Below, piece after piece: positions 14,259 to 45,735 of a stretch of 64,000 nucleotides of DNA; the first letter of the stretch is position 1; each line of letters opens with the position of its first letter. Source of the DNA: Candidatus Levyibacteriota bacterium (GTDB lineage: Bacteria > Patescibacteriota > Microgenomatia > Levybacterales > UBA12049); the NCBI GenBank assembly GCA_016182235.1, contig JACOXT010000004.1, positions 28,537-92,536 on the forward strand, read 5' to 3'. A program made the position numbers and the translations under genes. A model generated the notes under the pieces. That model did not search any database, had not been told where the DNA came from, and saw only the letters and a list, made by a program, of their open reading frames with translations.

Positions 14259-14260
14259 AT

Positions 14261-17750: not shown

Positions 17751-17764
17751 GGGGTATCTTAGCT

Positions 17765-18097: not shown

Positions 18098-18098
18098 A

Positions 18099-18195
18099 TG
18101 ATTAATGATTGATGATTTCTGATTAATGAAAAAAATAATTATATTTTCTCAATTCTATATTCTTAAATCTTTAATCATTAATCTTAAATCAATTC
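18099..18195. repeat. Inverted pair of heptamer arrays forming a hairpin between two pilin genes
   Basis: The left arm is TGATTAA/TGATTGA/TGATTTC/TGATTAA (18099-18126). The right arm is TCTTAAA/TCTTTAA/TCATTAA/TCTTAAA/TCAATTC (18161-18195). The arms are mutually complementary. Confidence 0.8.
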
Positions 18196-18199
18196 AGTC

Positions 18200-19450
18200 C
18201 TACGGATTGAATCCGGGTATATGCAAAATATCCACTCCAATTACCTGAAGTATTACAAATGAGAATATGATAAACAAAAGCCCGATGATTGCGGATAATA
18301 GCTGGCCTCGAGCCGCCTGAAGAGCTTCCGGATTTCCCTGAGATGCTATGAATCTATATCCTGAAAGAATAATCAAGATTAATGCAATTCCTCCGGCCAA
18401 CCCCAAAACTATGCTATATATACGAGTTACAAAGTCCTTAGGTTGTGTACTAATACCGCCAATCGCTGTGTTAATTGTTCTGCATATTTTGTTATCATCA
18501 TTCTCGTCGGTCGGATTTCCATTCTCGTCAACCCATTCAGTGCAAACAGCAGCATTAGTCGGCGCAATATAAATATCGAAATTTACACACTTATATCGGG
18601 TGACATTATCTTCTACCGCAAATCTGCAGACTTTTCCCTCGGGACAGTTGTTTTTGCCCGGATCGCACTCAGATGTTCCCGGAGGGGCAGGTCGACAACA
18701 AAACTGTCCATTACAATCATCGCTTTTTCCTAAAAGTAGTGCGCCAGCAAAGATTGGACATTCGGAGGCTTTATTAACACAGATATCAGGAGAACTGCAA
18801 GTCACAAGAGTTTTTTGGCAGCATATTTCAGATTTACCACAATAATTTTCTCTTGGTCCCAGCGAATTTCCTCCATCGTTGCGACATTCTCCTTCTGATG
18901 CACAATAATTAGGAGATAGGCAAGCCGTTCCCGGATCTGGCGGAGCTGGTTGGCAGCATATTTCAGGACTCTCACATTTCTTATCTACTAGTGGACTTCC
19001 GTTATTTGTTTTACATTCATCACTTGATGTGCAATAATTGGGGACTGAACACAATTGTTGAATTGGAATTGGGGTGGGGGTGGGGGTAGGAGTAGGGGCA
19101 TCAGCACATTGTAAGGCGTTGCAAAAATTACTGCAGCATTGATTGTTTTGTATACATCCCTTGCCGTTTGATTGGCAGAATGGAGTTGGAGTAGGCGTAG
19201 GTTTGCCGGTTGGGGTGGGAGTGAGTGTTGGAGTAGGAGTTCGTGTGGGCGTTGGGGTCCCGAATTGGTGGGGACAGCTATTGTTCGGATCATCGCAATA
19301 CTGTCCGAAGTCATCTCTTAGACACTGGTCGTTAGGGGAGCATGTGTCAGCGCCGCAGTTGCCATTACAGTGACTTGCTTGCGCGGAATTTACAGGAACT
19401 AAAAAAAGAAGTAAAAACAAAAACAAACCAAATAATACCTTAATCTTCAT
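18200..19450 (-). CDS. Secreted Cys-rich modular protein with a C-terminal T4SS pilin-like domain (pilin fusion)
   Basis: It has a signal peptide, PT linkers, and three CxxP(N/D)xC...EC...(I/F)CC(Q/R)P modules. The C-terminal motif is LSGYRFIASQGNPEALQAARGQLLSAIIGLLFI. Confidence 0.7.
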   Translation of the reverse strand: MKIKVLFGLFLFLLLFLVPVNSAQASHCNGNCGADTCSPNDQCLRDDFGQYCDDPNNSCPHQFGTPTPTRTPTPTLTPTPTGKPTPTPTPFCQSNGKGCIQNNQCCSNFCNALQCADAPTPTPTPTPIPIQQLCSVPNYCTSSDECKTNNGSPLVDKKCESPEICCQPAPPDPGTACLSPNYCASEGECRNDGGNSLGPRENYCGKSEICCQKTLVTCSSPDICVNKASECPIFAGALLLGKSDDCNGQFCCRPAPPGTSECDPGKNNCPEGKVCRFAVEDNVTRYKCVNFDIYIAPTNAAVCTEWVDENGNPTDENDDNKICRTINTAIGGISTQPKDFVTRIYSIVLGLAGGIALILIILSGYRFIASQGNPEALQAARGQLLSAIIGLLFIIFSFVILQVIGVDILHIPGFNP

Positions 19451-27525: not shown

Positions 27526-27526
27526 G

Positions 27527-27613
27527 CGGTGAGGGAGGGATTCGGACCCTCGATAGTCTTACGACTATGCACGCTCTCCAAGCGTGTCGATTCAACCGCT
27601 CTCGCACCTCACC
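27527..27613 (-). tRNA. tRNA-Ser(GGA)
   Basis: The acceptor is GGTGAGG/CCTCACC and the anticodon stem-loop is CACGC-TTGGAGA-GCGTG. It has a long variable arm and the T-loop GGTCCGAATCC. CCA is not encoded. Confidence 0.85.
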
Positions 27614-28052
27614 TTATTATTTTTTTGGCTTCTTGCCAAACTTTTTTGTCCGATGGGTAAGTCAGTCTTTTTTCAACCACATCTATTGGCAGCCATTCAA
27701 CATTTTCCATCTCCAGATCATGCTTACTTATATCGCCAGAAACATATTTCATTAGAAAATAATACACTTTTTTCTTGATTGTCTCATTCTGAAATTTAAA
27801 CCAATATTCTACCGGAGTTAGAGCCTTAATAATTTTCGCATCAACTCCTGTTTCTTCTCTGACTTCCCTAAGTGCTGCTTCCTCTTTTGTTTCTCTTCTT
27901 GATTCCTGATTCCTAATTCCTGATTCCTTCTTATCGATTAATCCTTTTGGAAAAACCCATCCATGATGTTGAGAGTGCTGCGCAACCAAAATAAATGTCT
28001 GGCCACTTTCTTTTTTATAAACTACTCCTCCAGCTGAAAATTGAAATTTCAT
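27609..28052 (-). CDS. NUDIX hydrolase
   Basis: The Nudix box is split by an insert: FPKGLIDKKE-[SGIRNQESRR]-ETKEEAALREVREETG. The stop codon overlaps the tRNA-Ser(GGA) 5' end. Confidence 0.8.
   Translation of the reverse strand: MKFQFSAGGVVYKKESGQTFILVAQHSQHHGWVFPKGLIDKKESGIRNQESRRETKEEAALREVREETGVDAKIIKALTPVEYWFKFQNETIKKKVYYFLMKYVSGDISKHDLEMENVEWLPIDVVEKRLTYPSDKKVWQEAKKIIR
27899..27926. repeat. Heptamer array TGATTCC x4 inside the NUDIX gene
   Basis: The units are TGATTCC TGATTCC TAATTCC TGATTCC. Confidence 0.85.
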
Positions 28053-28054
28053 AG

Positions 28055-28129
28055 TGTCCCCGGCGGGAGTTGAACCCGCAAATCTTCAGGTTCGGAACCT
28101 GACGCTCTATCCAATTGAACTACGAGGAC
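28055..28129 (-). tRNA. tRNA-Arg(CCG)
   Basis: GTCCTCGTAGTTCAATTGGATAGAGCGTCAGGTTCCGAACCTGAAGATTTGCGGGTTCAACTCCCGCCGGGGACA. The anticodon loop is TTCCGAA. Confidence 0.85.
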
Positions 28130-28136
28130 TCCAATG

Positions 28137-28222
28137 CGGAGAGAGTGAGATTCGAACTCACGGTCGCCTAAGGCGACAGCGGTTTTCGAAACCGCCGCAC
28201 TCGTCCACTATGCGATCTCTCC
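28137..28222 (-). tRNA. tRNA-Ser(CGA)
   Basis: The acceptor is GGAGAGA/TCTCTCC and the anticodon loop is TTCGAAA. It has a long variable arm and the T-arm GTGAGTTCGAATCTCAC. Confidence 0.85.
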
Positions 28223-28241
28223 CATTTTCGACTTTCTTTGG

Positions 28242-28314
28242 TGTGCCCGGTGGGAGTTGAACCCGCAATCGCTGGGTCCGCAACCCAGTGCTCTATCCAT
28301 TAAGCTACGGGCAC
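28242..28314 (-). tRNA. tRNA-Arg(GCG), with a C-A mismatch in the T stem
   Basis: GTGCCCGTAGCTTAATGGATAGAGCACTGGGTTGCGGACCCAGCGATTGCGGGTTCAACTCCCACCGGGCACA. The anticodon loop is TTGCGGA. Confidence 0.7.
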
Positions 28315-28315
28315 A

Positions 28316-28432
28316 GAGAGTAGAAAACAGAAAGTAAAAAGCTGAAGGTAGATTATTGGAAATGTTTAACTCCATCCTCTAGCTTCTATCATCAAAATAC
28401 TATCTTCTACCTTCCATCTTCCACCGTCTATT
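28316..28432. repeat. Heptamer-array hairpin without cargo (6 purine-rich units, 12-nt spacer, 9 pyrimidine-rich units)
   Basis: The left arm is GAGAGTA GAAAACA GAAAGTA AAAAGCT GAAGGTA GATTATT (28316-28357). The right arm is CTCCATC CTCTAGC TTCTATC ATCAAAA TACTATC TTCTACC TTCCATC TTCCACC GTCTATT (28370-28432). The right arm closely matches the reverse complement of 21584-21646. Confidence 0.85.
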
Positions 28433-28469
28433 TTATCCTATTGCAGATTATGAAGCAAATTTGACTAGA

Positions 28470-29096
28470 TTAACTTGTCTTTTCCAGGGGGAAATTGCGG
28501 GATAGCCAATCGCCGGATTTCTCCATGAATGTTGGTTTTATATATTCCCTATACGGAAGATAGGGGAGTAAGGCTGTCTTAATATGTTCTCGATCTACAT
28601 TCCCAAGCGTCAATGTTAATTCGCCGGGAATAAATGAATGAGTTCGTATATGAACAACATCTACTCCCTCTCTTTTTTTAAAGTAGAAGTCATATAATTC
28701 CTGCCAGAGGAAAAAATGATCCTCTATTGTTAGTCCTTCTGTACTTATTCTATAGCGGAAATTTGAAGGCGGAACCGTATTTAAGGCAAAAGCGACAAAC
28801 ACTAAAGACGCAACAACAAGCATCAAGAGGTATTGAGAAAATAGAAAAAGAATAATTTCAATAAGAAGCATTATTAGAATACTTGTTAAATAATATTGAC
28901 TGCCTCTTTTTCTAAAAGGTCTCCCGGGAGCACTCCACTCAAGTAGTGTTTTAATCTCATGTAGGTTATCGTCATGATGAATATTTTTAGTTTGCTGAGG
29001 ATCATTTTTGTCAACTTGAGGCTCAGAAAGCTCGAGAGGCTCTTTGGGGAGATCCAAGGGCTCTTTTGGAAGAAAAGGTTGTTCTTGAGCAGCCAT
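28470..29096 (-). CDS. Hypothetical 2-TM membrane protein (PH-like C-terminal domain)
   Basis: 208 aa, with an N-terminal repeated PKEPL(D/E)L, a central TM hairpin and a soluble C-domain. Confidence 0.5.
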   Translation of the reverse strand: MAAQEQPFLPKEPLDLPKEPLELSEPQVDKNDPQQTKNIHHDDNLHEIKTLLEWSAPGRPFRKRGSQYYLTSILIMLLIEIILFLFSQYLLMLVVASLVFVAFALNTVPPSNFRYRISTEGLTIEDHFFLWQELYDFYFKKREGVDVVHIRTHSFIPGELTLTLGNVDREHIKTALLPYLPYREYIKPTFMEKSGDWLSRNFPLEKTS

Positions 29097-29164
29097 ACAT
29101 TTATAGTATAGCAGTATTTAGTATTAGTCAAGATAAGAGAATGATGATATAATAAGTTTGTCTG

Positions 29165-29254
29165 GGAGGAGTCGCATAGCTTGGTCAATTGCGAGGGTTT
29201 GCTAAACCCTTGAGCAATAAAATGCTCGCGTGGGTTCGAATCCCACCTCCTCCG
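29165..29254 (+). tRNA. tRNA-Ser(GCU)
   Basis: The acceptor is GGAGGAG/CTCCTCC and the anticodon loop is TTGCTAA. It has a long variable arm and the T-arm GTGGGTTCGAATCCCAC. Confidence 0.85.
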
Positions 29255-29277
29255 CTTCACCCCGCTAAGCGGGGTAG

Positions 29278-29364
29278 GGAGAGGTCGCATAGTGGCCGAG
29301 TGCGGATGTCTTGAAAACATCTAAGATAGTAATATCTTCGCGAGTTCGAATCTCGCCCTCTCCG
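29278..29364 (+). tRNA. tRNA-Ser(UGA)
   Basis: The acceptor is GGAGAGG/CCTCTCC and the anticodon stem-loop is GATGT-CTTGAAA-ACATC. It has a long variable arm and the T-arm GCGAGTTCGAATCTCGC. Confidence 0.85.
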
Positions 29365-29390
29365 CCCTCAATTTCTGCTAAACTGATTCC

Positions 29391-30077
29391 GTGAATATTC
29401 TTGATCTTATTTTTCCCAAATACTGTGTTAATTGCGGAAAGCAAGGAGAATATATCTGTACTAACTGTTTTTCCTTCATTTCATTTGATGTTTCGATGAT
29501 TTGCCTTGTCTGCGGAAGACCCACAATTGACGGGTTAACTCATCCAAGATGCCAAGGGAGATACGTAATTGATGGCGCTTTTGCGGCCCTTTCTTATAAA
29601 GGAATTGTTAAAAAGCTTATTTATCAATTTAAGTACAAGCCTTATTTATCTGATCTTAAAGATTCTTTAGTTGACCTTTTTTATGAAGCAATTATTCAGA
29701 ATGAAATTTTCCAGAAGATATATGAAAATAAACCAATTCTTGTACCAATTCCTCTTCACAAGACACGATTGAGGAATAGGGGATATAATCATGCCCAGAT
29801 TTTAGCAACTGGTCTTTCTGAAAAGTTAAATCTTGAGGCACTAGATTTACTAGAGAGAAATCGGGAAACCAAGTCTCAGTTTGGATTGGATTTAAAAAAA
29901 AGAAAAGAAAATTTAAAGGACGCGTTTATTCTCAATACTAAATACCCGCCTACCGGTAAGAATCTGTTATTGGTTGATGATATTCTTACAACAGGCTCAA
30001 CACTTTTTGAAGCGGCAAAAGAGCTTAAGAAAAAAGGAGTAAAAAGGGTTTGGGGACTAACTCTAGCAAGAGGTTAA
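29391..30077 (+). CDS. comFC: ComF-family phosphoribosyltransferase-domain protein
   Basis: An N-terminal double Cys zinc ribbon (CVNCG...CTNC, CLVCG...HPRC) and a PRTase motif (LLLVDDILTTGSTL). The start codon is GTG. Confidence 0.8.
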   Translation: MNILDLIFPKYCVNCGKQGEYICTNCFSFISFDVSMICLVCGRPTIDGLTHPRCQGRYVIDGAFAALSYKGIVKKLIYQFKYKPYLSDLKDSLVDLFYEAIIQNEIFQKIYENKPILVPIPLHKTRLRNRGYNHAQILATGLSEKLNLEALDLLERNRETKSQFGLDLKKRKENLKDAFILNTKYPPTGKNLLLVDDILTTGSTLFEAAKELKKKGVKRVWGLTLARG

Positions 30078-30826
30078 TCACGTTTTTTATGCCCATTTAA
30101 CTTAAAATAATTTATAGTTTCAGATATTCTATCAGTTACAATGTCTTTAATTCCAGCTTGATTGAAAAGTCTTAGGCCAGCATCGTTATTTATTACTCCT
30201 GCCATAACATTAAAGCCATTTTTTTCAAAGCGCGCTTTTAGTTTGAGCAACCTTCCTCTTGCGACTAGAGCTCTAAAAAATGTTTGGCTTCCGGGAATAC
30301 TATCAAGCCAGCCTAGAAAAATTCCATAGCTTTTTGGAGGCCTTTTTATAAAAGAGTATCTTGGGAAACGTAAAAATTGGTCTACCCTAAGTTTTGGATA
30401 GTAAGATTGCGCGCTTAATGAGTTTTTGAGAATAAAAGAAAACCCGACAACGTGAATTTGAGACCATAATTTTTTTTCCCGGGTTTTTTTAATAATAGCA
30501 TCAATCAGAAGCGGAGAAGATGATTTAACTTCCAGAAAGAATTCCGCTTGTTTCTGTGGGATATACTCAAAAAGCTCATCTAGCGTCAAAAGTTCTTCTG
30601 CGGCGTGCTTTCGCATTTCTAGAAGATCAGAGAATTTTGTATCTGAAATCTTAACACTTACGCCATTCAGCCTTAATTTGTTATTATGATTTACAACTAC
30701 TTTGTTATCGGATGTTAAACGCAAATCACACTCAATTCCTTCTGCGCCTGCCTTAATTGCGGCATCAAAAGCTCGTATTGTATTTTCTTGGTAAAGCTTG
30801 CTATAACCCCTATGGGCAATTATCAT
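30074..30826 (-). CDS. Glycerophosphodiester phosphodiesterase
   Basis: The GDPD signature is IIAHRGYS...ENTIRAFDAAIKAGAEGIECDLRLTSD. Confidence 0.8.
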   Translation of the reverse strand: MIIAHRGYSKLYQENTIRAFDAAIKAGAEGIECDLRLTSDNKVVVNHNNKLRLNGVSVKISDTKFSDLLEMRKHAAEELLTLDELFEYIPQKQAEFFLEVKSSSPLLIDAIIKKTREKKLWSQIHVVGFSFILKNSLSAQSYYPKLRVDQFLRFPRYSFIKRPPKSYGIFLGWLDSIPGSQTFFRALVARGRLLKLKARFEKNGFNVMAGVINNDAGLRLFNQAGIKDIVTDRISETINYFKLNGHKKRD

Positions 30827-31500
30827 GTTGTAAAGTCCAGTGCCTTTAGTGAGGCAGACTTCTTTTTATAATTGTATCTTTTAATAATAAAGTAAATAAG
30901 AGCCATTATCAATAGGATTATTGCTCCAACAAACAAACTATCACCAAAAAATCTTTTATACGCTTCTTCTCCCAAATAGAAGATCAGAATATCCGGAAGA
31001 CTTGCAATAAGCGTTGCTGCGGCAAATTTTTTGTAAGAAATTTTTGTAAATCCGGCAATATAGCTTGAAAAATCAATAACCGGCACTGTAAATAGTCTTA
31101 ATGCAACGATAGCTAAGAATTGTTTTTTAGTAGACATTTGTTTTTCAAGTTGGCGAATTTTCTGAAGAGGAATAAATTTTGCGACTAAAGGCTCTCTATA
31201 CTTTCTCGCAAGCCAAAAGGCAAGAGATGTACCAATAAATATTCCAGTTACTGTGTAAACATAAGTATTGAACCATCCCAATAACGGAACCAAAGCAAAA
31301 GATACAATTCCTCCCGGGATAAAAGGGAAAACTATGCCTATGATCCTGATTAAAACAAGGGAAAATGCCGCGATATAAAGATGCTCTTTGGTAAAAGTGG
31401 TTTCGGCCAGTTTGTATGGATTGATAAATATAAAAAAGGCCAATAATAAAGAAAGTGCTATTAGCGCGAGAATACTAATAGCAATATATTTTTTCCTCAT
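30823..31500 (-). CDS. DedA/VTT (TVP38/TMEM64)-family membrane protein
   Basis: 225 aa, multi-TM, with an FPFIPGG-type motif (IVFPFIPGGIVSF). Confidence 0.65.
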   Translation of the reverse strand: MRKKYIAISILALIALSLLLAFFIFINPYKLAETTFTKEHLYIAAFSLVLIRIIGIVFPFIPGGIVSFALVPLLGWFNTYVYTVTGIFIGTSLAFWLARKYREPLVAKFIPLQKIRQLEKQMSTKKQFLAIVALRLFTVPVIDFSSYIAGFTKISYKKFAAATLIASLPDILIFYLGEEAYKRFFGDSLFVGAIILLIMALIYFIIKRYNYKKKSASLKALDFTT

Positions 31501-31690: not shown

Positions 31691-32048
31691 GGGGATGAAC
31701 TGATTCGACGAGAATGCACTTTAAAAAACAGCAAGCCGACATTGATTGAAAGTCGTAAAACTCAATCAAAATATAAATGCTAACGATCAAAATCGTTATG
31801 CGTTCGCTTACGCCTAATAACGTTTAGGGAACTGTTTATAGAGTCTTTTCTCAATGGGACTTTATAAGCATAAATACAGTTGAGAAATAGTAAGGAAAGT
31901 TGGTTTTTGTCCTTATCGAATTTATAAACCTTGGTGTTATTGATTCTTGTTGATTAGAAAAAAATAGCGCGACTCAAAATAATCAACTAAGCTTGTAGAA
32001 GTTTTTAATGTAAATTCTTGGACTCCGGTTCATTGCCGGACATCTCCA
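31691..32048 (+). ncRNA. ssrA: tmRNA (SsrA)
   Basis: The 5' end is GGGGATGAACTGATTCGACG. The 3' end has a tRNA-like T-arm (TCCGGTTCATTGCCGGA) and acceptor CATCTCC-A, with a G3-U pair. The tag ORF at 31779-31817 is GCT AAC GAT CAA AAT CGT TAT GCG TTC GCT TAC GCC TAA TAA, giving ANDQNRYAFAYA. Confidence 0.9.
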
Positions 32049-32052
32049 CACA

Positions 32053-37586: not shown

Positions 37587-38225
37587 ATGTTGGAGGTTAT
37601 TCCTGGGATTTTGGAGAAAGAGTGGAGTGAGATTGAGAGAAAGATAAATCTCGTAAAGTCATTTGCCAGGACAATACATATAGATATTATTGACGGAAAA
37701 TTTGCTCCGAATACCACTTTTCTTGACCCAACCCCATTTGCCAAATATGCCAAAGAATTAACATTGGAAATTCACATGATGGTTGAAAATCCTATTCAAT
37801 ATCTCAAGCCCTTTGCAGACGCTGGGTTTAGACGTTTTTTGGGACACGTTGAGAGAATGAATAATCAAGAAGAATTTGTAGCACAAGGAGAGCTTTTGGG
37901 GGAAGTAGGACTAGCGATTGATGGGCCAACCACCCTTGATGCCATTAAAGTTCCGTACAGAGATCTGGATTGCATCCTGGTAATGACAATAAAAGCTGGG
38001 GAGTCTGGTCAAGTCTTTGTTCAGGACAATTTGAAAAAAGTAGAAATTATTCGCAAAGCTTCGAATGATGTTCCTTTTTCGATTGAGGTTGATGGTGGGA
38101 TAAGCGATAAAACAATAAGTGAGTCAAAAAATAAAGGAGCAGTTCGTTTTGTCGCAAATAGCTTTATTTTTCAAAGTCAAGACCCCCACAATCAATTCAA
38201 CCTTCTTAAAAAATGCTTGGAATAG
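37587..38225 (+). CDS. rpe: Ribulose-phosphate 3-epimerase-like protein
   Basis: IHIDIIDGKFAPNTTF, HMMVENP and VDGGI motifs of the Rpe TIM barrel. Confidence 0.75.
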   Translation: MLEVIPGILEKEWSEIERKINLVKSFARTIHIDIIDGKFAPNTTFLDPTPFAKYAKELTLEIHMMVENPIQYLKPFADAGFRRFLGHVERMNNQEEFVAQGELLGEVGLAIDGPTTLDAIKVPYRDLDCILVMTIKAGESGQVFVQDNLKKVEIIRKASNDVPFSIEVDGGISDKTISESKNKGAVRFVANSFIFQSQDPHNQFNLLKKCLE

Positions 38226-38530
38226 ACATAGTATATTTGCCGGAATTTGAAGCTAGGATGAAGAACGTTTCTCTTGAGAAAGTTTTTTTACAAGTTGAAC
38301 TCTCTCAAAACAAAACTTCGGAAAATTTGGCTGGAATCTTTGCTGCAAAGGAAGCTTTTTTTAAGGCACTGGGTAAGAAAGCAAATTGGCTAGATGTTTG
38401 GATAGAGAAGAATAAATTCGGTATGCCGAGCCTTCACTCAAATATTGTTAATCCCTCTTATAATATGGAAGTTAGCATTTCTCATAAGAACAAATATGCC
38501 ATATCAGTAGTTTTCATATGGAAACATTAA
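38213..38530 (+). CDS. acpS: Holo-ACP synthase (4'-phosphopantetheinyl transferase)
   Basis: GIDIV at the N-terminus, AAKEAFFKALG, and SISHKNKYAISVV. It overlaps the downstream fusion gene by 13 nt. Confidence 0.8.
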   Translation: MLGIDIVYLPEFEARMKNVSLEKVFLQVELSQNKTSENLAGIFAAKEAFFKALGKKANWLDVWIEKNKFGMPSLHSNIVNPSYNMEVSISHKNKYAISVVFIWKH

Positions 38531-40971
38531 TTGACCTTTTGCCTCTTTTTAAAAAAAGAGGCAAAAAAGAAGTTTTTATATATAGAACCGGAATTCGAAG
38601 ATTCACATTTAGTTATAGACAGCTTTATGATTTGTCTCTTAAAATGGCATCTTATCTTGAAGAGCGGGGGATTAAAAAAGGAGATCGAGTTGCGCTTTGG
38701 GCGCCGAATAGTCCTTTTTGGGCTGTTTGTTTTTTCGGAATTTTATTAAAAGAGGCAATTGTTGTGCCAATTGATTTTGCATCCGGTAAACAAAGAGCGC
38801 AAAATATAATTAGGCTTTCAGGCTCAAGTTTTGTCATAGAAAGTAACTATAAATTTGAAAAGTTAAGTGGAATAAAAAGTATTGCAATTGAGGATCTGGA
38901 TTTTTTATTAAGGAATATTTCTTCTAAGTATAATTTTCCAAAACCTAAGCCAAATGATATCGCTGAAATTGTTTATACTTCCGGAACAACTGGCAATCCA
39001 AAGGGAGTTGAGCTTAATCATAAGAATCTTGTGACGAATATTTTGCAGGCGGAGCATCACATTCGTTTTCCGTCTCGGTTTTCATTCCTTTCAGTTTTGC
39101 CTCTTTCTCATTTATTTGAGCAGACTGCTGGATTTCTAACTCCTTTACACAGAGGAGATAAAATTGTCTACCTTCGAACCATAAAACCCTTGGCAATCAT
39201 GGAAGCATTTTCCCAAGAAAATGTTGCGGCAATGTTGGTTGTTCCGCGACTTTTACTTCTTCTTAAGAATTCAATTGAAAGAGAATTTGATTCGCTAGGT
39301 TTGAGAGGATTTTTAAATATCAATATCTTTAAAAAAATACTCTCTTATCCTGTTCATAGAAAAATAGGATCTAATTTTCAAATGTTTATCTCAGGAGGAG
39401 CGGGTTTGCCAACGGAGACTTACAGATTCTGGAATAGCATGGGGTTTAGGGTAGTTGAGGGATACGGCCTGACTGAATGTTCACCAATAGTTTGCGCCAA
39501 CACATTTGATAAACAAATTCCGGGGTCTGTCGGAAAGCTAGTCAAAGGCGTGAAAGTAAAGGTAGATAATGGAGAACTTTTGGTAAAAGGGGATAATGTT
39601 TTTTCAGGATATTACCGCAATGACAAAGAAACAGAGAAGGCTTTTAATAAAGACGGCTGGTTTAGAACAGGAGATTTAGCAAGTTTTGATAAGGAAGGGA
39701 ATATTTATATTAAAGGAAGGAAAAAAGATGTAATTATAACTCCATCCGGTGTCCATGTGTATCCGTTGGAGGTTGAAGAAGTACTAAATCACATAAGTGG
39801 AGTAAAAGAGTCTTGCGTTTTTGGTCTAAATAGAGGAAAAGGGGAAGAAACTCATGCCGTTTTGCTTCTTAATGACCCCAATGTCAATCCCTCAAAAATT
39901 ATTCAACTTGCCAATGAGAAACTTGATCCTTTAGCTCAAATTGAAGGCTTCTCCGTATGGAAGGATTATGATTTCCCAAGAACAACTACTCTTAAGGTCC
40001 AAAAATTTAAAGTTCTGGAAGCGGTATCGGGCAAAGTCAATGGGAATGATCCAAATCTCAAAGATGCCCTCGTCTCCCTTCTTTCTACGATGAGTAAAAA
40101 GCCAGGTGCAGATATACGAGAAAATTCAATATTAACTACAGATTTAGGATTAGACTCTATTTCAAGGCTCGAGCTTATTAACTTTTTGGAGCAGGAATAC
40201 CGTCTTGATTTGGAAGATTCAAATATTGATCAATATACCACAGTTTCTGATTTACGTCGGATGCTTGAGAAAAGAGGGGACCAGAAAAAAAAGTCAGGCT
40301 TGTGGTTTTGGACCAATAACAAGAGAGGGCGAATCCTTAGGAAATTTTTAGATAAAATATTTCACATACCCATCTCACATTTGTTTTTTGACTTAGAAGT
40401 TATAGGACTTTCCAATTTGAAAAACATAAAACCCCCTGTTGTTTTTATTTCAAATCATGTAAGTTATTTAGACCAGCCTGCTATTATGTTTGCTTTGCCG
40501 TCTATTTGGCGCTACTCAACTGCAAGCGCGGTACGGGAAGAATTCTTCTTTAATAGGGAAAATGAGTCTTTATTCCATAAACTTCTTTTTCCCTATACTA
40601 TATTTGCTTTTAATGGTTTTTTATTACCGCAAAAAAGCGGATTCAGAAAAAGCCTGTCATTTATGGGAAAACTCATTGATAACAACAGGAATATTCTGGT
40701 TTTTCCAGAAGGAACCAGATCAAAAAACGGAGAAATTTTACCTTTTATGCATGGTTTAGGAATTATCGTAAAGGAATTACAAGTTCCCTTAGTCACAATT
40801 AGAATTATAGGGATGGAGAAAATTTTTCCTAGAGGAAAATTTTTCCCAAAAAAAGGGAAATGTTTCATTGTTATTGGAAAAGCTTTAAATTTTACAACCG
40901 AAACGCCAAGTGAAATTGTTGAAAAATCGCGAAGAGCGATACTTTCCTTAGGTAATAAACTTGACATATAG
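38518..40971 (+). CDS. Tri-domain fusion: acyl-AMP ligase (FadD/AasS-like), acyl carrier domain, and PlsC-type lysophospholipid acyltransferase
   Basis: AMP-binding motifs are YTSGTTGNPKGV, GYGLTECSP and GWFRTGD...GRKKDVI. The carrier-domain motif is DLGLDSISRLEL. The acyltransferase motifs are NHVSYLD (HX4D) and FPEGTRS. Confidence 0.85.
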   Translation: METLIDLLPLFKKRGKKEVFIYRTGIRRFTFSYRQLYDLSLKMASYLEERGIKKGDRVALWAPNSPFWAVCFFGILLKEAIVVPIDFASGKQRAQNIIRLSGSSFVIESNYKFEKLSGIKSIAIEDLDFLLRNISSKYNFPKPKPNDIAEIVYTSGTTGNPKGVELNHKNLVTNILQAEHHIRFPSRFSFLSVLPLSHLFEQTAGFLTPLHRGDKIVYLRTIKPLAIMEAFSQENVAAMLVVPRLLLLLKNSIEREFDSLGLRGFLNINIFKKILSYPVHRKIGSNFQMFISGGAGLPTETYRFWNSMGFRVVEGYGLTECSPIVCANTFDKQIPGSVGKLVKGVKVKVDNGELLVKGDNVFSGYYRNDKETEKAFNKDGWFRTGDLASFDKEGNIYIKGRKKDVIITPSGVHVYPLEVEEVLNHISGVKESCVFGLNRGKGEETHAVLLLNDPNVNPSKIIQLANEKLDPLAQIEGFSVWKDYDFPRTTTLKVQKFKVLEAVSGKVNGNDPNLKDALVSLLSTMSKKPGADIRENSILTTDLGLDSISRLELINFLEQEYRLDLEDSNIDQYTTVSDLRRMLEKRGDQKKKSGLWFWTNNKRGRILRKFLDKIFHIPISHLFFDLEVIGLSNLKNIKPPVVFISNHVSYLDQPAIMFALPSIWRYSTASAVREEFFFNRENESLFHKLLFPYTIFAFNGFLLPQKSGFRKSLSFMGKLIDNNRNILVFPEGTRSKNGEILPFMHGLGIIVKELQVPLVTIRIIGMEKIFPRGKFFPKKGKCFIVIGKALNFTTETPSEIVEKSRRAILSLGNKLDI

Positions 40972-41237: not shown

Positions 41238-43445
41238 CTAATTGTTTTTTATTAGGCTAGTTGATTTGGGAACAAAATTACAGTTGACAAGATTTTCTGT
41301 TCCTTGCATAAAATATTCTTCTCTTCCTAAGCATTTTTTCTTCACTACGCTAGACGGTATAACTATCTTGGTATTTTCTGAATTAGCAATAAGGTTAGTC
41401 ATTATATTATTCCAAATTGGCGCTGCGCCTGTGATGCCGGAAGCAAGATTTTGACTCATTGGAGAATTATCATTATTTCCTACCCATACGCCAACGACAT
41501 AGTGAGGCGTGTAGCCGATAGTCCAGTTATCTCTTTTATTGTCTGAGGTTCCTGTTTTAACTGAGACATTGTGGTTTGGAATATTAAGTGGAGAGTTGGA
41601 GCCAAATTCCATTTCGCGCGCTTTGTTATCAGAAAGAATATCTGAGATAATAAAAGCGACTCCCGGGTCAACCACCTCTTGTTTTTCGCTATTTGACGGA
41701 TCTTTTTTCTCCTCTAGTATATTTCCCTGCGAATCAGTAAGTTTAAGAATTGGATTAAGATCAACCCTATATCCGCCATTTGCAAGAACGCCATATACAG
41801 TCGCCATATCTATCATTTTTACCTCGGCTCCTCCTAATGTGATTGCTAAGCCGTAAGAATTTGGGTCTTTCCATGTTGTAATCCCCATCTCTCGGCCCAG
41901 ATTAACCATCGTTGGTATTCCAATTTTTGAAAGAACTTTTATGGCTGGAATATTTATTGAATTCCCCAAGGCTTGCCTTAACGTTACTAATCCATGGAAC
42001 TTGCCATCATAGTTAACAGGTGAGTATGGAGGGCTGCCCAGAGTTCTGTATGTAATAGGGCTGTCGTCAAGAATTGTCGCGGCAGTAAATCCTTGAGTAA
42101 GAGCAGCGGCATAGGTTACGACTTTTATGCTTGATCCTGGTTGTCGAAGCGCAGTAGTTACGTTAAAATTCCCAACATTAGGTTCTTGGTAGTCGCGGCT
42201 TCCAACCATTGATATTATGTCTCCATTCTTGGGATTAGTAACAAGGGAAGCTCCGTTTGTTAGATTAAGATACTCATTTTTTTCTACTTCTGCTTTTAGA
42301 ATTTTTTCGACCATTTCTTGTGTTTTAAGATCAATACTTGTTATCACTCTAAGTCCGCCTTTCTCGACCATCCCCAATCCATATTTTTTAACAAGATGCT
42401 CTTTCACATACATAACAAAATGAGGAGCGTGAATCGGGACCTCTTTATTAAAAAAAACAAGTTTTTCTTTAATAGCGTCTTCTTTTTGTTTAGAATTTAT
42501 ATATCCCAATTGGTTCATTTTTGTCAAAACTTCCACTTGACGTTTTTTCCAAAGATTTTGGGATTCTCCATATGGAGAATAAAGAGTTGGGGCTCTTGTT
42601 AATCCTGCTAAAAACGCACTTTGGGCAAGATTAAGATTCTTTATTGGTTTATCGAAATATACCTCAGCCGCAGAAGCAGCGCCCCAAGCAGTCCCTCCAT
42701 ATGGAATACGATTAAAATACATTTCCAGGATTTGATCTTTTGTATAGATTCTCTCTGCCCAAAATGCTAAGATTATTTCTTTAATTTTTCTTTTTACGCT
42801 GATTTCAGAAGTTAGTAAAGTTGATTTAATGAGCTGTTGAGTGATGGTCGAACCTCCTTGCAAGGGTTGTCCTGATAAATCAGCGATTGCTGCTCGAATA
42901 ATTGCAGAAATATCAAAGCCTGAATTGGAATAAAAGTTTTTATCTTCAGCTGCAATTGTGGCTTGCTGTAGATAGATAGAGATAGACTCTAAGGGCACTA
43001 AGGTTCTATTTTGACTTGTGTAGATTTGGTAAAGTAGAGTTCCATTTCTATCAAATAACTTTGTAGTAAGAGGAGCCTCCTGAAAATCCAACTCCTTGGG
43101 ATGAGGCAGTTCTTGTAAGAAAAGAATTAAAAGTAGCGGAAGGAAAACAAAAATAAAAGAGAAAATAGAGCCAATAACAAAATACTTAATTTTATATCTA
43201 ACAGGCAAAGGGAAGATGTTGATTTCTTTTACTCGTCTTTTACTTTTTGTTTTTAAACCAAGAGTTTTTTTGCGGCTTAATCCAAACTTTATCTTAATCT
43301 TTAAAATTAGCTTAAAGATTTTTTTTGTTGCCCTAGAGACAAACTTGAATATAAATATAGTAATATCTCCAGTGCCAATAAGGATTTTTATAAATAAAGC
43401 AAGAATATTAACAATGATATCCATATTTGAAAGGAATAGAGCCAA
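41238..43445 (-). CDS. Class A penicillin-binding protein (PBP1A-type glycosyltransferase/transpeptidase), copy 1
   Basis: GT51 motifs are AAEDKNFYSNSGFD, GGSTITQQL and RKIKE. The TP motifs are SSIK (SxxK) and KTGTS. Confidence 0.9.
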   Translation of the reverse strand: MALFLSNMDIIVNILALFIKILIGTGDITIFIFKFVSRATKKIFKLILKIKIKFGLSRKKTLGLKTKSKRRVKEINIFPLPVRYKIKYFVIGSIFSFIFVFLPLLLILFLQELPHPKELDFQEAPLTTKLFDRNGTLLYQIYTSQNRTLVPLESISIYLQQATIAAEDKNFYSNSGFDISAIIRAAIADLSGQPLQGGSTITQQLIKSTLLTSEISVKRKIKEIILAFWAERIYTKDQILEMYFNRIPYGGTAWGAASAAEVYFDKPIKNLNLAQSAFLAGLTRAPTLYSPYGESQNLWKKRQVEVLTKMNQLGYINSKQKEDAIKEKLVFFNKEVPIHAPHFVMYVKEHLVKKYGLGMVEKGGLRVITSIDLKTQEMVEKILKAEVEKNEYLNLTNGASLVTNPKNGDIISMVGSRDYQEPNVGNFNVTTALRQPGSSIKVVTYAAALTQGFTAATILDDSPITYRTLGSPPYSPVNYDGKFHGLVTLRQALGNSINIPAIKVLSKIGIPTMVNLGREMGITTWKDPNSYGLAITLGGAEVKMIDMATVYGVLANGGYRVDLNPILKLTDSQGNILEEKKDPSNSEKQEVVDPGVAFIISDILSDNKAREMEFGSNSPLNIPNHNVSVKTGTSDNKRDNWTIGYTPHYVVGVWVGNNDNSPMSQNLASGITGAAPIWNNIMTNLIANSENTKIVIPSSVVKKKCLGREEYFMQGTENLVNCNFVPKSTSLIKNN

Positions 43446-43545
43446 AATCGATCTTAAGCTGTAGAATTATACAACAAATATAACTTATTTGAATAGATGG
43501 TAAATTTATATTATCTAAGGCTTATAGTAGGGAAATATAAGGTAT

Positions 43546-45735
43546 TTAGTTAGGGGCAGAGGTGGGATTTTGTTCTCCGGTTGGGGTGGGATGAGGACAA
43601 GTTATACAGTATGGTTCGCCAGCTGCGTCGTTTATTAAAACTACTTCTTTTTCTTCAATATTCTCTGTTTGGTTTGGCTTTGCAAGATCCTGAGTTGTTT
43701 TATCTATTCTAACTTTTTGTAGTCCTTCTTCCTGTTTTTTGGGCTCAGTGCCTTTTAGGAAATATTCAAATCTAGTTTCACATTTTTCCCCATCCGATTT
43801 AGGAAGAAGCCCCGAAATTGAGCAGATACTCTTTTGGATGACGTTTGGCGGCCGCGGCAGGGGTTCTATAGGCTTGTCTTTCAAAAGATAAGTCATGATC
43901 TCGTTCCAAATTGGTGCTGCCCCTGTAACTCCGGAGGTAAGTCTACCCATGGGGGTGTTGTCATTGTTGCCAACCCAAACAGCAACCACAAAAGAAGGAG
44001 TATAGCCAATAGTCCAATTATCGCGAAGGTCATTGGTGGTTCCGGTTTTTACAGAAACAGTTCGGTCTGGTATTCGAAGGGATGAGTTTGACCCAAAGGC
44101 CATCATGCGTGAGTTATTATCAGCTAGAATATCAGAAATAATAAAAGCAACGCCTTCGGGAAGAACTTTCTTACCAAAAATTGGAGAAGAAAGAGGTTTA
44201 TATTCTTCCAGAACTTTTCCGCGACTATCGGTAATCTTAAGAATTGGATGAAGATTAATTCTATACCCTTGATTTGCAAAGACTGCGTAACTTTCTCCCA
44301 TATCAAGCATGGTAACTTCTCCTCCTCCCAAAGTTAGAGAAAGTCCGTATCTGTCAGGATCGTCAAAACTAGTAATTCCCATAGCCGACGCAGTTGAAAT
44401 CATGCTTTGTATGCCGTTAAGCTTTAGCATCTTCACTGCAGGGATATTTATAGAATTTCCCAAAGCATAACGCATCTGAACTACACCATGCCAATTCCCG
44501 TCATAATTGACAGGACAATAGTTTTTACCATCCAGAGTCGGAAAGCAGACAGGAGCGTCGATAAAAGGAGTCGCGGCAGTGTATCCTTTTATGAGTCCTA
44601 CAGCATAATTAACAGGTTTTATCGAAGATCCAGGCTGACGAAGCGAAAGAACAACATTTACATTGCCGTCTATTGAGTCGTCAAAATAGTCCCGGCTTCC
44701 AACCATTGCCAAAATTTCTCCAGTTCCCGGGATAGTCACCAAGGCTGCTCCATTGGTAACATGATAGCCGGCAAGCTCTTCAATATTTTTTTTGACAGTT
44801 TTTTGGGCGAAATCTTGAATTTCATAGTCAAGGCTTGTAATAACGTTTAACCCCCCCTCTTCTACTAGTTTTTCGCCGTACTTTTTGACCAACAGATCTT
44901 TTATATAAAGAACAAAATGGGGAGCAAGAATATTGTCATAAGCTGGCTTAAATTTAAGCTTTTGCTTTAGAGCTTTTTCTTTCTGAGAGACTGTTATATA
45001 TTTTTGCTCGTACATTTTGTTAAGAATTAGGGTTTGGCGTTTTTTGGCAAATTCCGGATGAGCCCCATATGGAGAGTTGGTAGTTGGAGATTCGGGTAAC
45101 CCAGCCAAAAGAGCGCTCTCTGCAAGATCTAAGCTGCTTGTTGACTTACCAAAATACGTTTGCGCTGCTGCTTCAATTCCCCAGGCAGTCCCCCCATATG
45201 GAACTTGATTAAGATACATTTCAAGTATTTTGTCTTTTGGATAGATTGCTTCAGTTACAAAAGATAAAATAACTTCTTTAATCTTTCTTGAGATAGTTCT
45301 CTCTGGAGTTAACAAACTGTTTTTGACTAATTGTTGGGTTAAAGTAGATCCGCCTTGAAGCTCTCTACGAAATATTATTGAAACTAAAGATCTAGAAATA
45401 GCTCGAAAATCTATTGCCCCATGAGAGTAGAAATCTTTGTCTTCAATAGCAATAGTTGCTTCACGCACATGTTTTGGAATTGACGATAGCGGAATAAATT
45501 TTTGATTTCTTGAGGAGTAAATGGAGTAGAGAAGACGTTTATTTCTGTCAAAAATTTGAGTAGATTGTGCGAAATCTAGGCTATTTAACTTTGTGGGAAA
45601 AGGTAAATCTTTTAAAATGAAAAGATAAAAAAGCATTGAAATCGTAACAAAAGCAATTAGTAAAAACCATAGCTTCTTTTTTAAGCGCAACGAAAAGATA
45701 CTTTTGTTTTTTTTCGAGTGCGGGAAGCTTTGCAT
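43546..45735 (-). CDS. Class A penicillin-binding protein, copy 2
   Basis: GT51 motifs are AIEDKDFYSHGAID, GGSTLTQQL and RKIKE. The TP motifs are SSIK and KTGTT. Confidence 0.9.
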   Translation of the reverse strand: MQSFPHSKKNKSIFSLRLKKKLWFLLIAFVTISMLFYLFILKDLPFPTKLNSLDFAQSTQIFDRNKRLLYSIYSSRNQKFIPLSSIPKHVREATIAIEDKDFYSHGAIDFRAISRSLVSIIFRRELQGGSTLTQQLVKNSLLTPERTISRKIKEVILSFVTEAIYPKDKILEMYLNQVPYGGTAWGIEAAAQTYFGKSTSSLDLAESALLAGLPESPTTNSPYGAHPEFAKKRQTLILNKMYEQKYITVSQKEKALKQKLKFKPAYDNILAPHFVLYIKDLLVKKYGEKLVEEGGLNVITSLDYEIQDFAQKTVKKNIEELAGYHVTNGAALVTIPGTGEILAMVGSRDYFDDSIDGNVNVVLSLRQPGSSIKPVNYAVGLIKGYTAATPFIDAPVCFPTLDGKNYCPVNYDGNWHGVVQMRYALGNSINIPAVKMLKLNGIQSMISTASAMGITSFDDPDRYGLSLTLGGGEVTMLDMGESYAVFANQGYRINLHPILKITDSRGKVLEEYKPLSSPIFGKKVLPEGVAFIISDILADNNSRMMAFGSNSSLRIPDRTVSVKTGTTNDLRDNWTIGYTPSFVVAVWVGNNDNTPMGRLTSGVTGAAPIWNEIMTYLLKDKPIEPLPRPPNVIQKSICSISGLLPKSDGEKCETRFEYFLKGTEPKKQEEGLQKVRIDKTTQDLAKPNQTENIEEKEVVLINDAAGEPYCITCPHPTPTGEQNPTSAPN

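Follow-up and report, generated by a model that had tools for sequence, protein, structure and literature searches.

The window, by which we mean the whole 64-kb stretch of DNA that was analysed, carries an overlapping string of three genes, rpe-acpS-fusion, in which the last gene encodes an 817-amino-acid protein that joins an adenylating domain, an acyl carrier domain, and an acyltransferase domain. A protein identical to the fusion is annotated in a metagenome-assembled genome (MAG) of Candidatus Levybacteria, a tiny symbiotic CPR bacterium, and databases name it a long-chain acyl-CoA synthetase. The features of the locus are as follows.

30074..30826, reverse strand: glycerophosphodiester phosphodiesterase (PF03009, E 1.3e-22)
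30823..31500, reverse strand: DedA/VTT membrane protein, overlapping the glycerophosphodiesterase gene (PF09335, E 2.5e-17)
37587..38225, forward strand: rpe, ribulose-phosphate 3-epimerase, first gene of the overlapping string (Pfam PF00834, E 9e-35; NCBIfam)
38213..38530, forward strand: acpS, predicted 105-aa group I 4'-phosphopantetheinyl transferase (PF01648, TIGR00556)
38518..38530, forward strand: 13-nt acpS/fusion overlap, ATGGAAACATTAA (read directly from the sequence)
38518..40971, forward strand: tri-domain fusion gene, 817 aa, stop codon included (ORF list, Pfam, NCBIfam)
38518..40032, forward strand: ANL adenylate-forming domain, residues 1-505 (PF00501, E 3.3e-72)
40060..40272, forward strand: acyl carrier domain, residues 515-585 (PF00550, 31.5 bits)
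40306..40968, forward strand: PlsC/AGPAT-type acyltransferase domain, residues 597-817 (PF01553, E 5.7e-16)

The 13-nt overlap between acpS and the fusion gene, described in the first-pass annotation, was borne out by direct reading of the sequence: the fusion ATG lies at 38518 and the acpS TAA at 38528-38530. The overlap between rpe and acpS is also 13 nt (ATGCTTGGAATAG, 38213-38225). With its start codon inside the end of acpS, the fusion gene has an arrangement that would allow translational coupling. In homologous loci, the two genes as called are separated by up to 16 nt or overlap by up to 56 nt, and in most of these loci the overlap does not exceed 13 nt. Since the N termini of both proteins are conserved (M1, T3, L4, D6, and L7 of the fusion are invariant or nearly so among 41 homologues, and AcpS retains MLGIDIV), both start codons are supported. 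The fusion reading frame spans 817 codons in 36% G+C DNA and has more than 7,900 homologues at E ≤ 1e-10; the frame and its domains are therefore not due to chance.

Pfam profiles, an AlphaFold2 model of the 817-residue protein (mean pLDDT, 83.3; pTM, 0.84), and fold searches agree on three domains in one polypeptide, as had been proposed, and the motifs quoted for them earlier were all found (TSGTTGNPKG at residue 154, FRTGD at 382, DLGLDS at 542, HVSYLD at 647, and FPEGTR at 729). The N-terminal domain consists of a core (residues 1-405) and a C-terminal subdomain (residues 406-505). It belongs to the ANL superfamily, fatty-acid ligase type, since it passes the profile threshold (PF00501 at residues 13-366, 243.9 bits against a cut-off of 29.9) and contains core motifs A3, A5, A7, A8, and A10. 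These are the P-loop (A3; nt 38977-39006), GYGLTE (A5) at residue 315, FRTGD (A7), GRKKD (A8) at residue 400, and PRTTTLK (A10) at residues 487-493 (nt 39976-39996), which includes Lys493. The core motifs, T154-G163 and K493 among them, are invariant in 41 sequences. The AMP-binding_C profile matches residues 418-491 with 22.7 bits, under its cut-off of 24.5. The top PDB matches of the domain are MatB, FadD13, and MenE, and the acyl-ACP synthetase AasS (8hsy) matches with an E value of 1.7e-24. In the FAAL subclass of these enzymes, an insertion in the N-terminal domain blocks CoA use. Assignment to this subclass was rejected: in the profile alignment, positions 7-384 are covered by residues 13-366 and no additional segment intervenes, an approximate comparison based on profile coverage, and the closest PDB relatives are CoA ligases and AasS rather than FAALs.

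The middle domain is a carrier protein by both fold and motif. PF00550 matches residues 517-582 above its cut-off of 20.8 bits, and NCBIfam ACP models match as well. The absence of a carrier fold, which the first-pass annotation had named as grounds for discarding its reading of this segment, was not observed. Instead, Foldseek recovered the four-helix ACP fold against the type II ACPs PfACP (3gzl), B. subtilis ACP (2x2b), 2ehs, and E. coli AcpP (target TM, 0.79-0.87; rmsd, 1.6-2.0 Å). The D-x-G-x-D/T-S serine motif is present as DLGLDS at residues 542-547, its predicted phosphopantetheine-attachment residue, Ser547, is encoded at 40156-40158, and in the AlphaFold2 model a helix (residues 547-561) begins at this serine. 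Neither Ser547 nor Asp542 varies among 41 sequences, which extend down to 49% identity. Judged from its sequence and model, the carrier resembles the FAS-type ACPs. FAS-type ACPs are the natural clients of AcpS-type transferases. The linkers that flank the carrier (residues 507-514 and 586-591) have pLDDT values below 50.

The C-terminal domain is a PF01553 acyltransferase (residues 627-763, 59 bits against a cut-off of 23). Its HX4D motif, HVSYLD, occupies residues 647-652 (nt 40456-40473), motif III, FPEGTR, begins at residue 729 (nt 40702-40719), and VPLVTI at residue 756 corresponds to motif IV (VPxxPx). H647, D652, F729, P730, E731, and G732 are invariant across the 41 homologues. The domain opens with an amphipathic helix of high hydrophobic moment (residues 597-620; 40306-40377), and no transmembrane helix was found in it. 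The only PDB sequence match of the domain is Thermotoga maritima PlsC (5kym; E 2.7e-10), which is also the best Foldseek match (E 3.4e-10), followed by GPATs and PatA. The domain scores 44 bits against TIGR00530, for which the cut-off is 102.95, and its next NCBIfam matches are AGPAT and Aas-type phospholipid acyltransferases. The AGPAT motif II region reads REEFFF in the family (consensus TATAAxEEFFF in the 41 homologues) and could not be aligned with the canonical acceptor-binding motif.

AcpS matches PF01648 (E 4.5e-10; 40 bits, cut-off 25) and TIGR00556 (49.4 bits, cut-off 45.35) and falls under the cut-off of the equivalog TIGR00516 (47.2 bits against 59.8). Its closest solved relative is B. 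subtilis AcpS (1f7l; E 2.6e-8), with which AAKEAFFKA and SISH align, and GIDIV (containing Asp5), AAKEA, and SISH are conserved in eight AcpS orthologues. On these sequence features we assign it to the group I phosphopantetheinyl transferases and predict that it primes the fused carrier domain.

The pairing of the two genes is conserved. Directly upstream of the fusion gene lies acpS in each of the seven Levybacteria-type loci that were inspected (the window, which also turned up as L169, together with L003/4, L007/8, L170, and L171), and the full rpe-acpS-fusion order recurs in L003, L007, and L170. The same placement of acpS was found in seven other loci, including those of Sungbacteria (L005/6) and Kaiserbacteria (L024) as well as L019, L020, L026, L090, and L092. 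Among AcpS clusters on contigs of at least 2.9 kb, 31 of 48 share their longest contig with a fusion cluster. The tight coupling of AcpS to the fusion that had been claimed thus holds, both in the overlap itself and in a pairing kept across CPR lineages.

The fusion itself is not unique to these organisms. The carrier-acyltransferase core is common to at least 583 clusters at 50% identity, homologues of the same architecture are found at 46 to 49% identity in Geobacteraceae, which are not CPR bacteria, and more distant ones (about 32 to 37% identity) occur in Planctomycetia and Chloroflexota. At approximately 38 same-architecture genes from Geobacteraceae, Planctomycetia, Chloroflexota, and metagenome contigs, no acpS was found beside the fusion. 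Because Geobacteraceae presumably possess FAS II and synthesize fatty acids themselves, having the enzyme as such does not imply auxotrophy. A specific link of the fusion to lipid auxotrophs is not supported; its pairing with acpS in CPR bacteria is.

Outside Levybacteria, the acpS-linked genes are flanked by patatin-like hydrolases with a conserved Ser/Asp dyad in five loci, by an alpha/beta hydrolase in two, and by a cyclopropane-fatty-acyl-phospholipid synthase (CFA synthase) in two. These phospholipase-like and CFA-synthase neighbors in other CPR bacteria fit lipid salvage. Against this reading, the upstream gene in Levybacteria is rpe rather than a lipase, and no patatin homologue was found in the 64-kb window. 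In Levybacteria, the fusion gene sits among cell wall genes (SpoIID, LytR_C, and two class A PBPs). These cell wall neighbors are not conserved outside Levybacteria, whereas the lipid hydrolases are.

No free ACP reading frame, fab gene, or pls gene was found in the 64-kb window. The earlier statement that the window contains no fatty-acid synthesis genes is accordingly true, but for 64 kb it is weak evidence. CPR bacteria have been described as unable to make fatty acids, and their membranes are nonetheless reported to be fatty-acid based and rich in lysolipids (PMC7906910, PMC7242380); some Patescibacteria do carry acpP (PMC12455944). The glycerophosphodiesterase and DedA genes to which the first-pass annotation drew attention are real and lie approximately 7 to 8 kb upstream on the opposite strand. 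They are possible accessory genes of lipid salvage, and their functional link to the acpS-fusion pair is one of proximity only. A VTT-domain gene also lies approximately 5 kb upstream of the Sungbacteria acpS-fusion pair.

One of the closest known systems, E. coli Aas, the bifunctional 2-acylglycerophosphoethanolamine acyltransferase/acyl-ACP synthetase that also occurs in MFS-fused LplT-Aas forms, follows the logic proposed for the fusion: a free fatty acid is activated with ATP and loaded on the phosphopantetheine of an ACP, and a PlsC-family domain then passes it to a lysophospholipid. NCBIfam Aas models are matched by both halves of the fusion. The positions of these matches (acyltransferase at 13-147 of 719 or 425-568 of 1140 and ligase at 913-1097 of 1140) confirm the earlier observation that the domain order, adenylation, carrier, acyltransferase, is the reverse of that of Aas, in which the acyltransferase comes first. 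The fusion is not an Aas orthologue, as it scores far below the curated Aas cut-offs and its order is reversed. Aas also uses a separate ACP subunit, whereas the fusion has its ACP as a covalent domain and, unlike Aas, a presumably dedicated acpS in its operon. Vibrio AasS and Chlamydia AasC are ANL enzymes like the N-terminal domain and supply membrane synthesis by attaching exogenous fatty acids to ACP. Unlike the fusion, they work in trans on free AcpP, with neither a carrier nor an acyltransferase attached. T. maritima PlsC, a 1-acyl-sn-glycerol-3-phosphate acyltransferase, shares HX4D, FPEGTR, VPxxPx, and an N-terminal helical membrane-association element with the C-terminal domain. However, it stands alone, uses free acyl-ACP, is only 19 to 24% identical to the domain, and seems to differ in the acceptor-binding region.

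From this anatomy, we conclude that in this CPR bacterium, Candidatus Levybacteria, the gene pair probably serves as a module for fatty-acid salvage and re-acylation, and that the fusion is best read as an Aas-like, cis-acting enzyme with a dedicated primer. The overlap of the two genes suggests that they are probably co-translated. AcpS would move 4'-phosphopantetheine from CoA to Ser547 of the carrier. The ANL domain would then use ATP to adenylate a free fatty acid, exogenous or recycled, and attach it in cis to the holo-carrier as a thioester, so that it would work as an acyl-ACP synthetase with a built-in ACP. The carrier, held on its two flexible linkers, would bring the acyl chain to the PlsC-like domain, which may rest on the membrane through its amphipathic helix. 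There, the chain would be esterified to a glycerolipid by means of the His647/Asp652 pair of the HX4D motif, a lysophospholipid or lysophosphatidic acid being the likeliest acceptor. Such a function would give the two genes a physiological role in an organism that lacks FAS II. The lipid-scavenging reading is upheld as far as the domains, the conserved acpS pairing, the CPR host, and the lipid-gene neighbors are concerned, and is not upheld as something specific to auxotrophs. To call the module self-contained was too strong, since the acceptor lipid, the CoA for priming, and the fatty-acid source lie outside the gene pair.

Three other explanations were weighed. The fusion may be a specialized-lipid enzyme like ElbD, the multidomain ether-lipid enzyme of Myxococcus xanthus, so that its A-ACP-AGPAT core makes a particular lipid class (for example, ether-lipid precursors through DHAP or G3P acylation, or another non-bulk lipid) instead of serving general salvage. 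Compared by its published description (PMC9131029), ElbD has the same domains in the same order, and the order seen here is that of ElbD minus the reductase, so it is not new. ElbD-like proteins without the reductase have already been noted in several other phyla (PMC9131029; preprint 10.64898/2026.06.23.733905), and the fusion family is widespread outside CPR. ElbD is the one protein with this core that has been studied: ACS and ACP activities were shown for it, and acyltransferase activity was not detected in vitro (PMC9131029), a result that weighs against the salvage reading. However, ElbD has an N-terminal FAR-like reductase and elbB-E neighbors. Pfam finds no reductase or FAR domain in the fusion, neither the window nor the homologous loci contain elbB-, elbC-, or elbE-like neighbors, and the genes nearby in Levybacteria are rpe, acpS, PBPs, SpoIID, and LytR_C. 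Elsewhere in CPR, the neighbors are phospholipase-like hydrolases and CFA synthase, whose substrates are ordinary ester phospholipids, and the CPR lipids reported so far are acylglycerols (PMC7242380). The CPR context of acpS, patatin, and cfa points to ester-phospholipid remodelling, unlike ElbD, and we consider an ElbD-like role unlikely.

It is similarly improbable that the acceptor is something other than a phospholipid (a glycolipid or lipoteichoic-acid anchor, a lyso-aminolipid, or an envelope polymer), such that the module decorates the envelope and not the bulk membrane. The atypical motif II region and the cell wall genes around the Levybacteria locus are consistent with such a function, as is the inclusion among PF01553-fold enzymes of OlsA and of PatA, which acylates phosphatidylinositol mannosides. 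Both of these are weaker matches than the lysophosphatidic acid acyltransferase PlsC, the best match in sequence and fold, the next NCBIfam matches are phospholipid acyltransferases, and it is the lipid hydrolases and not the cell wall genes that are kept outside Levybacteria. The database name of the fusion, the CoA ligases among the best A-domain profile matches, and the modest PP-binding score of 31.5 bits would suit an ordinary acyl-CoA synthetase with a vestigial carrier, acpS being either a chance neighbor or the partner of a free AcpP from another locus. This explanation is very improbable: Ser547, Asp542, and other carrier residues are invariant down to 49% identity, the ACP fold is confidently recovered, and at least 12 distinct loci, spread over several CPR lineages, have acpS next to the fusion gene, far beyond chance.

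The salvage and re-acylation reading has a wider form, which we offer tentatively as a serious possibility rather than an expectation. A patatin-like or alpha/beta hydrolase, acpS, the fusion, and in some loci CFA synthase may together be the missing route from host lipids to membranes in FAS-less CPR/Patescibacteria, a "Lands cycle" within one polypeptide, in which the fusion would be the only phosphopantetheinylated protein of the cell and AcpS would be kept solely for it. If true, this would also account for the lysolipids in which CPR cells are reportedly enriched and would overturn the statement that CPR genomes encode no enzymes that make or use ACP. The pair would represent Aas-type chemistry that occurs naturally with the ACP fused in cis, which is of interest for carrier-protein channelling. 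If essential, the module would be a plausible vulnerability of epibiotic CPR bacteria. CPR/Patescibacteria make up a large share of the diversity of bacteria, and the synthesis of fatty acids and of most lipids is reportedly missing from them; how they acquire their membranes is an open question. The acpS-fusion pair is a concrete candidate and provides a testable route from scavenged lipids to membranes in bacteria unable to make fatty acids.

The open reading frame (ORF) table places three consecutive genes on the plus strand:

37587-38225 (+), rpe, the ribulose-phosphate 3-epimerase gene
38213-38530 (+), AcpS-like gene, 105 aa
38518-40971 (+), fusion gene, 817 aa

The rpe/acpS and acpS/fusion junctions are each a 13-nt overlap with the pattern ATG-N7-stop (ATGCTTGGAATAG and ATGGAAACATTAA), and the start codons of acpS and of the fusion gene are backed by N-termini kept in homologues. 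Promoter and terminator scans around the genes gave counts no better than chance. Pfam resolved the fusion into the following domains:

residues 13-366, AMP-binding (E = 3.3e-72)
residues 418-491, AMP-binding_C (22.7 bits, just under the cutoff of 24.5)
residues 517-582, PP-binding (31.5 bits; cutoff, 20.8)
residues 627-763, Acyltransferase, PF01553 (E = 5.7e-16)

The protein also carries the remaining core motifs of adenylating (ANL) enzymes and AGPAT motif IV. AcpS matches PF01648 (ACPS) and, among the NCBIfam models, passes TIGR00556 but fails the stricter acpS equivalog model. The first-pass annotation had described an acpS gene overlapping a tri-domain fusion by 13 nt; ORFs, Pfam, and motifs confirmed every detail, and all of the motifs quoted there were found in the fusion.

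Conservation was assessed in an alignment of 41 full-length homologues that are 49 to 69% identical to the query. The P-loop, the A10 lysine (Lys493), Asp542 and Ser547 of the carrier, and the acyltransferase residues His647/Asp652, F729, P730, E731, and G732 were invariant. An AlphaFold2 model of the whole fusion built from this alignment was confident (mean pLDDT, 83.3; pTM, 0.84), with low-confidence linkers at residues 507-514 and 586-591, in keeping with a carrier that moves. Its carrier segment was helical, and Ser547 opened the helix spanning residues 547-561. Because Foldseek matched the whole model to ANL enzymes only (MatB, FadD13, MenE, luciferases, and the McyG A-PCP didomain), residues 508-817 were modeled separately from a second alignment (pLDDT, 79.4) and compared with the PDB. 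The acyltransferase half matched Thermotoga maritima PlsC (5kym; E = 3.4e-10), followed by GPATs of plants and humans and by PatA of mycobacteria; by sequence, 5kym was the only PDB match of the C-terminal domain. The carrier half matched many type II fatty acid synthase (FAS) ACPs, including those of P. falciparum, B. subtilis, A. aeolicus, T. maritima, and H. pylori and E. coli AcpP (target TM score, 0.79 to 0.87; root mean square deviation, 1.6 to 2.0 Å), and the excised carrier matched NCBIfam ACP models and not nonribosomal peptide synthetase carrier models. The middle segment, on whose fold the first-pass annotation had made its reading depend, therefore has a carrier-protein fold. AcpS-type transferases classically serve FAS-type ACPs, so the pairing of acpS with a fusion bearing a FAS-type carrier fits. 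AcpS itself aligned with B. subtilis AcpS (1f7l; E = 2.6e-8) across the AAKEAFxKA and SxSH segments.

The adenylating domain was nearest to ANL enzymes of the fatty-acid/CoA-ligase type, with the acyl-ACP synthetase AasS also matched; its alignment with the Pfam profile showed no insertion of the FAAL type. No transmembrane helix was found in the fusion; a hydrophobic peak at residues 67-85 was rejected as a candidate because it is part of the adenylating-domain core. An amphipathic helix rich in basic and aromatic residues (597-620) stands before the acyltransferase core, and we take it to resemble the membrane-association element of T. maritima PlsC. The ANL, ACP, and PlsC domains of the fusion are ordinary members of their families.

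More than 7,900 homologues of the fusion were retrieved at E ≤ 1e-10, and nearly all of the best 120 are 810 to 860 aa long with the same three Pfam domains. Searched against 1.84 billion representatives, a carrier-acyltransferase profile matched at least 583 clusters (50% identity; E ≤ 1e-30), most of them 790 to 860 aa in length; carrier-acyltransferase proteins of approximately 300 to 370 aa also occur among the cluster representatives. Levybacteria-type fusions are 57 to 69% identical to the query, those of Sungbacteria and Geobacteraceae (Geotalea, Geomonas, and Geobacter) approximately 50%, and those of Kaiserbacteria, Planctomycetia, Dehalococcoidia, and Limnocylindria 32 to 39%. ElbD, an ether-lipid enzyme of Myxococcus xanthus, is a reductase-A-ACP-AGPAT protein (PMC9131029), and the ElbD-like proteins noted in other phyla have, for the most part, no reductase (PMC9131029; 2026 preprint 10.64898/2026.06.23.733905). 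As judged from its published description, ElbD shares its core architecture with the fusion, whereas its defining reductase and gene context are absent from the latter. The architecture of the fusion is therefore not new, nor is the fusion restricted to lipid auxotrophs. The first-pass proposal of a lipid-scavenging module held in part: its domains and fold are supported, but the fusion is shared with Geobacteraceae, which we assume to have FAS II, and its domain order with ElbD. The fusion is predicted to work like E. coli Aas, but it is not an orthologue, since its domain order is reversed, as the first-pass annotation had observed, its ACP is fused, and its scores fall under the cutoffs.

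Several homologous loci depart from the common form. A Planctomycetia homologue (L017, 2098-4953) bears at its C terminus an additional glutaredoxin/thioredoxin-like domain (PF05768; E = 1.3e-12). In L025 (5926-8495), L023, and L027 (5200-8514), the tri-domain gene is in pieces, either as a ligase alone plus a carrier-acyltransferase or as three pieces, which may be genuine variants or frameshifts. The Acidobacteriaceae locus L027 was rejected as ElbD-like, as it has no recognizable reductase domain and its gene is split or frameshifted.

All fetched loci were searched for acpS with an AcpS HMM and gene calls. The acpS-fusion pair was present in every Levybacteria-type locus examined (the window, recovered again as L169; L003/4; L007/8; L170; and L171), in Sungbacteria (L005/6) and Kaiserbacteria (L024), and in five loci of unverified taxonomy (L019, L020, L026, L090, and L092). 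In these loci the gene immediately before the fusion gene is acpS; by the gene calls, the two are up to 16 nt apart or overlap by up to 56 nt. No acpS was found within the flanks of approximately 38 loci of the same architecture (Geobacteraceae, Planctomycetia, and Chloroflexota genomes and metagenome contigs); these counts are not frequencies, since the metagenome and genome scans, with at least some 600 pattern matches, sampled the family unevenly. In the reverse search, all 175 AcpS relatives retrieved were Levybacteria-like. For 31 of the 48 on contigs of at least 2.9 kb, the longest contig was exactly equal in size to that of a fusion cluster; of the other 17, the 2 that were inspected both had the pair. 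In a neighbor-joining tree (no support values), acpS-linked fusions formed two groups around a Geobacterales clade, which suggests, as an indication only, that the gene may have been exchanged between CPR bacteria and Geobacterales. In Levybacteria (the window, L003, L007, and L170), rpe has the same orientation as acpS and usually overlaps it.

The most informative result of the analysis is the gene neighborhood. Outside Levybacteria, the pair is flanked by lipid enzymes at six loci:

L005: patatin-like gene, acpS, fusion; flanking lipid gene at 4798-5697
L092: patatin-like gene, acpS, fusion, CFA synthase gene (PF02353, 1.5e-88); flanking genes at 1576-2460 and 5631-6755
L024: two patatin paralogues, acpS, fusion, CFA synthase gene (7.7e-86); flanking genes at 3839-5685 and 8429-9631
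L090: serine hydrolase gene, acpS, fusion, patatin gene (2e-20); flanking genes at 595-1167 and 3900-4733
L019: alpha/beta hydrolase gene with PGAP1/LCAT-like matches, acpS, fusion; flanking gene at 786-1487
L020: divergently transcribed patatin gene, then acpS, fusion; flanking gene at 146-1036

An alignment of the patatin-like neighbors showed that the GG element and the Ser/Asp dyad are kept. Among the fetched loci, no lipid hydrolase or CFA synthase neighbor was found beside fusion genes without acpS. The hydrolases and the acpS-fusion pair, with CFA synthase in two loci, form a recurrent, presumably lipid-remodeling cluster outside Levybacteria. No description of this cluster was found in the literature searched, where absence is no proof, and the CPR-specific coupling to acpS, lipid hydrolase, and CFA synthase genes appears to be undescribed there. 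In the window, a DedA/VTT gene and a glycerophosphodiester phosphodiesterase gene (30074-31500, minus strand) overlap by 4 nt, and a VTT-domain gene (L005, 389-994) lies approximately 5 kb upstream of the Sungbacteria pair; DedA/VTT and glycerophosphodiesterase may be accessory lipid-salvage functions.

A protein identical to the fusion, encoded on a 96,418-bp contig, bears the NCBI annotation "AMP-binding protein [Candidatus Levybacteria bacterium]," and a shorter copy of that contig is present in groundwater run SRR12113420. The window is typical of CPR by G+C content (approximately 36 to 38% over most of its length) and gene content (dnaA/dnaN, a type IV-secretion-like cluster, glycolytic genes, class A penicillin-binding proteins, and a tRNA cluster with tmRNA). 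Its other features include the following:

4599-5702 (+), hexokinase-family gene with domains of the eukaryote type (PF03727, PF00349) adjoining a PIN-domain gene, upstream of yidC/jag and the dnaA-dnaN origin region
10719-19450 (-), type IV-secretion-like cluster (VirB4/TraG P-loop ATPase, PrgI-family protein, T4SS pilin-domain protein, and several genes without a Pfam match), with a higher G+C (0.43) in the part at 10 to 14 kb than elsewhere; the cluster may be either an apparatus conserved in CPR or an element that has integrated
27526-29366 and 31691-32051 (both strands), six tRNA genes (four Ser, two Arg), then tmRNA with tag ANDQNRYAFAYA
41238-45735 (-), a tandem pair of class A penicillin-binding proteins (transglycosylase plus transpeptidase) directly downstream of the fusion, a synteny kept in Levybacteria loci L003 and L169
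52125-54824 (-), 899-aa predicted secreted protein without a Pfam match, with N-terminal Cys-rich repeat modules (GGCxSxxxCxxYCxDP...) and then approximately 450 aa of Tyr/Thr/Pro/Ser-rich low complexity (YYTP, TPSYGTP), coinciding with the top G+C of the window (0.45) and a GC skew of 0.36

As the first-pass annotation had noted, the window has no fatty acid synthesis genes: no fab, acc, or pls gene was found. Neither a second PF01553 protein nor a free ACP (carrier-domain HMM and phmmer with E. coli AcpP on all ORFs of ≥40 aa) was found there, and at 64 kb these absences are weak evidence. CPR bacteria are reported to be incapable of de novo fatty acid synthesis although their membranes are built on fatty acids (He et al. 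2021, PMC7906910), and CPR-rich size fractions are enriched in lysolipids (Probst et al., PMC7242380). The acpS-fusion pair is at odds with the view of Probst et al. that CPR genomes are without ACP-making and ACP-using enzymes.

The pair is probably an Aas-like system for salvage and re-acylation, in which the enzyme carries its ACP in cis and has a primer of its own. From the anatomy, folds, conserved residues, and synteny observed directly, we infer priming, substrates, transfer in cis, and physiological role as follows. AcpS would place phosphopantetheine from CoA on Ser547, and the ANL domain would adenylate a free fatty acid and thioesterify it onto the carrier. The acyl-carrier would then swing over to the membrane-associated PlsC-like domain, where His647/Asp652 would catalyze the O-acylation of LPA or a lysophospholipid. 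In loci that have them, the phospholipase-like neighbors would release fatty acid and lysolipid from phospholipids that the cell has acquired, and CFA synthase would act on the lipids made. Hydrolases, fusion, and CFA synthase together would constitute a bacterial "Lands cycle."

Several observations weigh against this reading or qualify it. The acceptor-binding region of the fusion is atypical, Geobacteraceae share the enzyme, and in Levybacteria the gene upstream of the pair is rpe and not a lipase. The acyltransferase activity of ElbD could not be shown in vitro (PMC9131029), and acpP is present in some Patescibacteria (PMC12455944). A role as an ElbD-like specialized-lipid enzyme is unlikely, since the fusion has no reductase, no elb-like genes occur in the window or the homologous loci, and the CPR context opposes it. 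Acylation of a non-phospholipid envelope acceptor draws some support from the cell wall gene neighbors in Levybacteria, but these neighbors are not conserved outside Levybacteria and PlsC is the best match; we consider it equally improbable. We consider it least probable that the fusion is an ordinary acyl-CoA synthetase whose carrier is vestigial and whose acpS neighbor is there by coincidence, a reading contradicted by the invariance of Ser547, the fold of the ACP, and the repeated adjacency of acpS. The fusion-acpS cluster makes the question of how CPR bacteria acquire their membranes experimentally testable.
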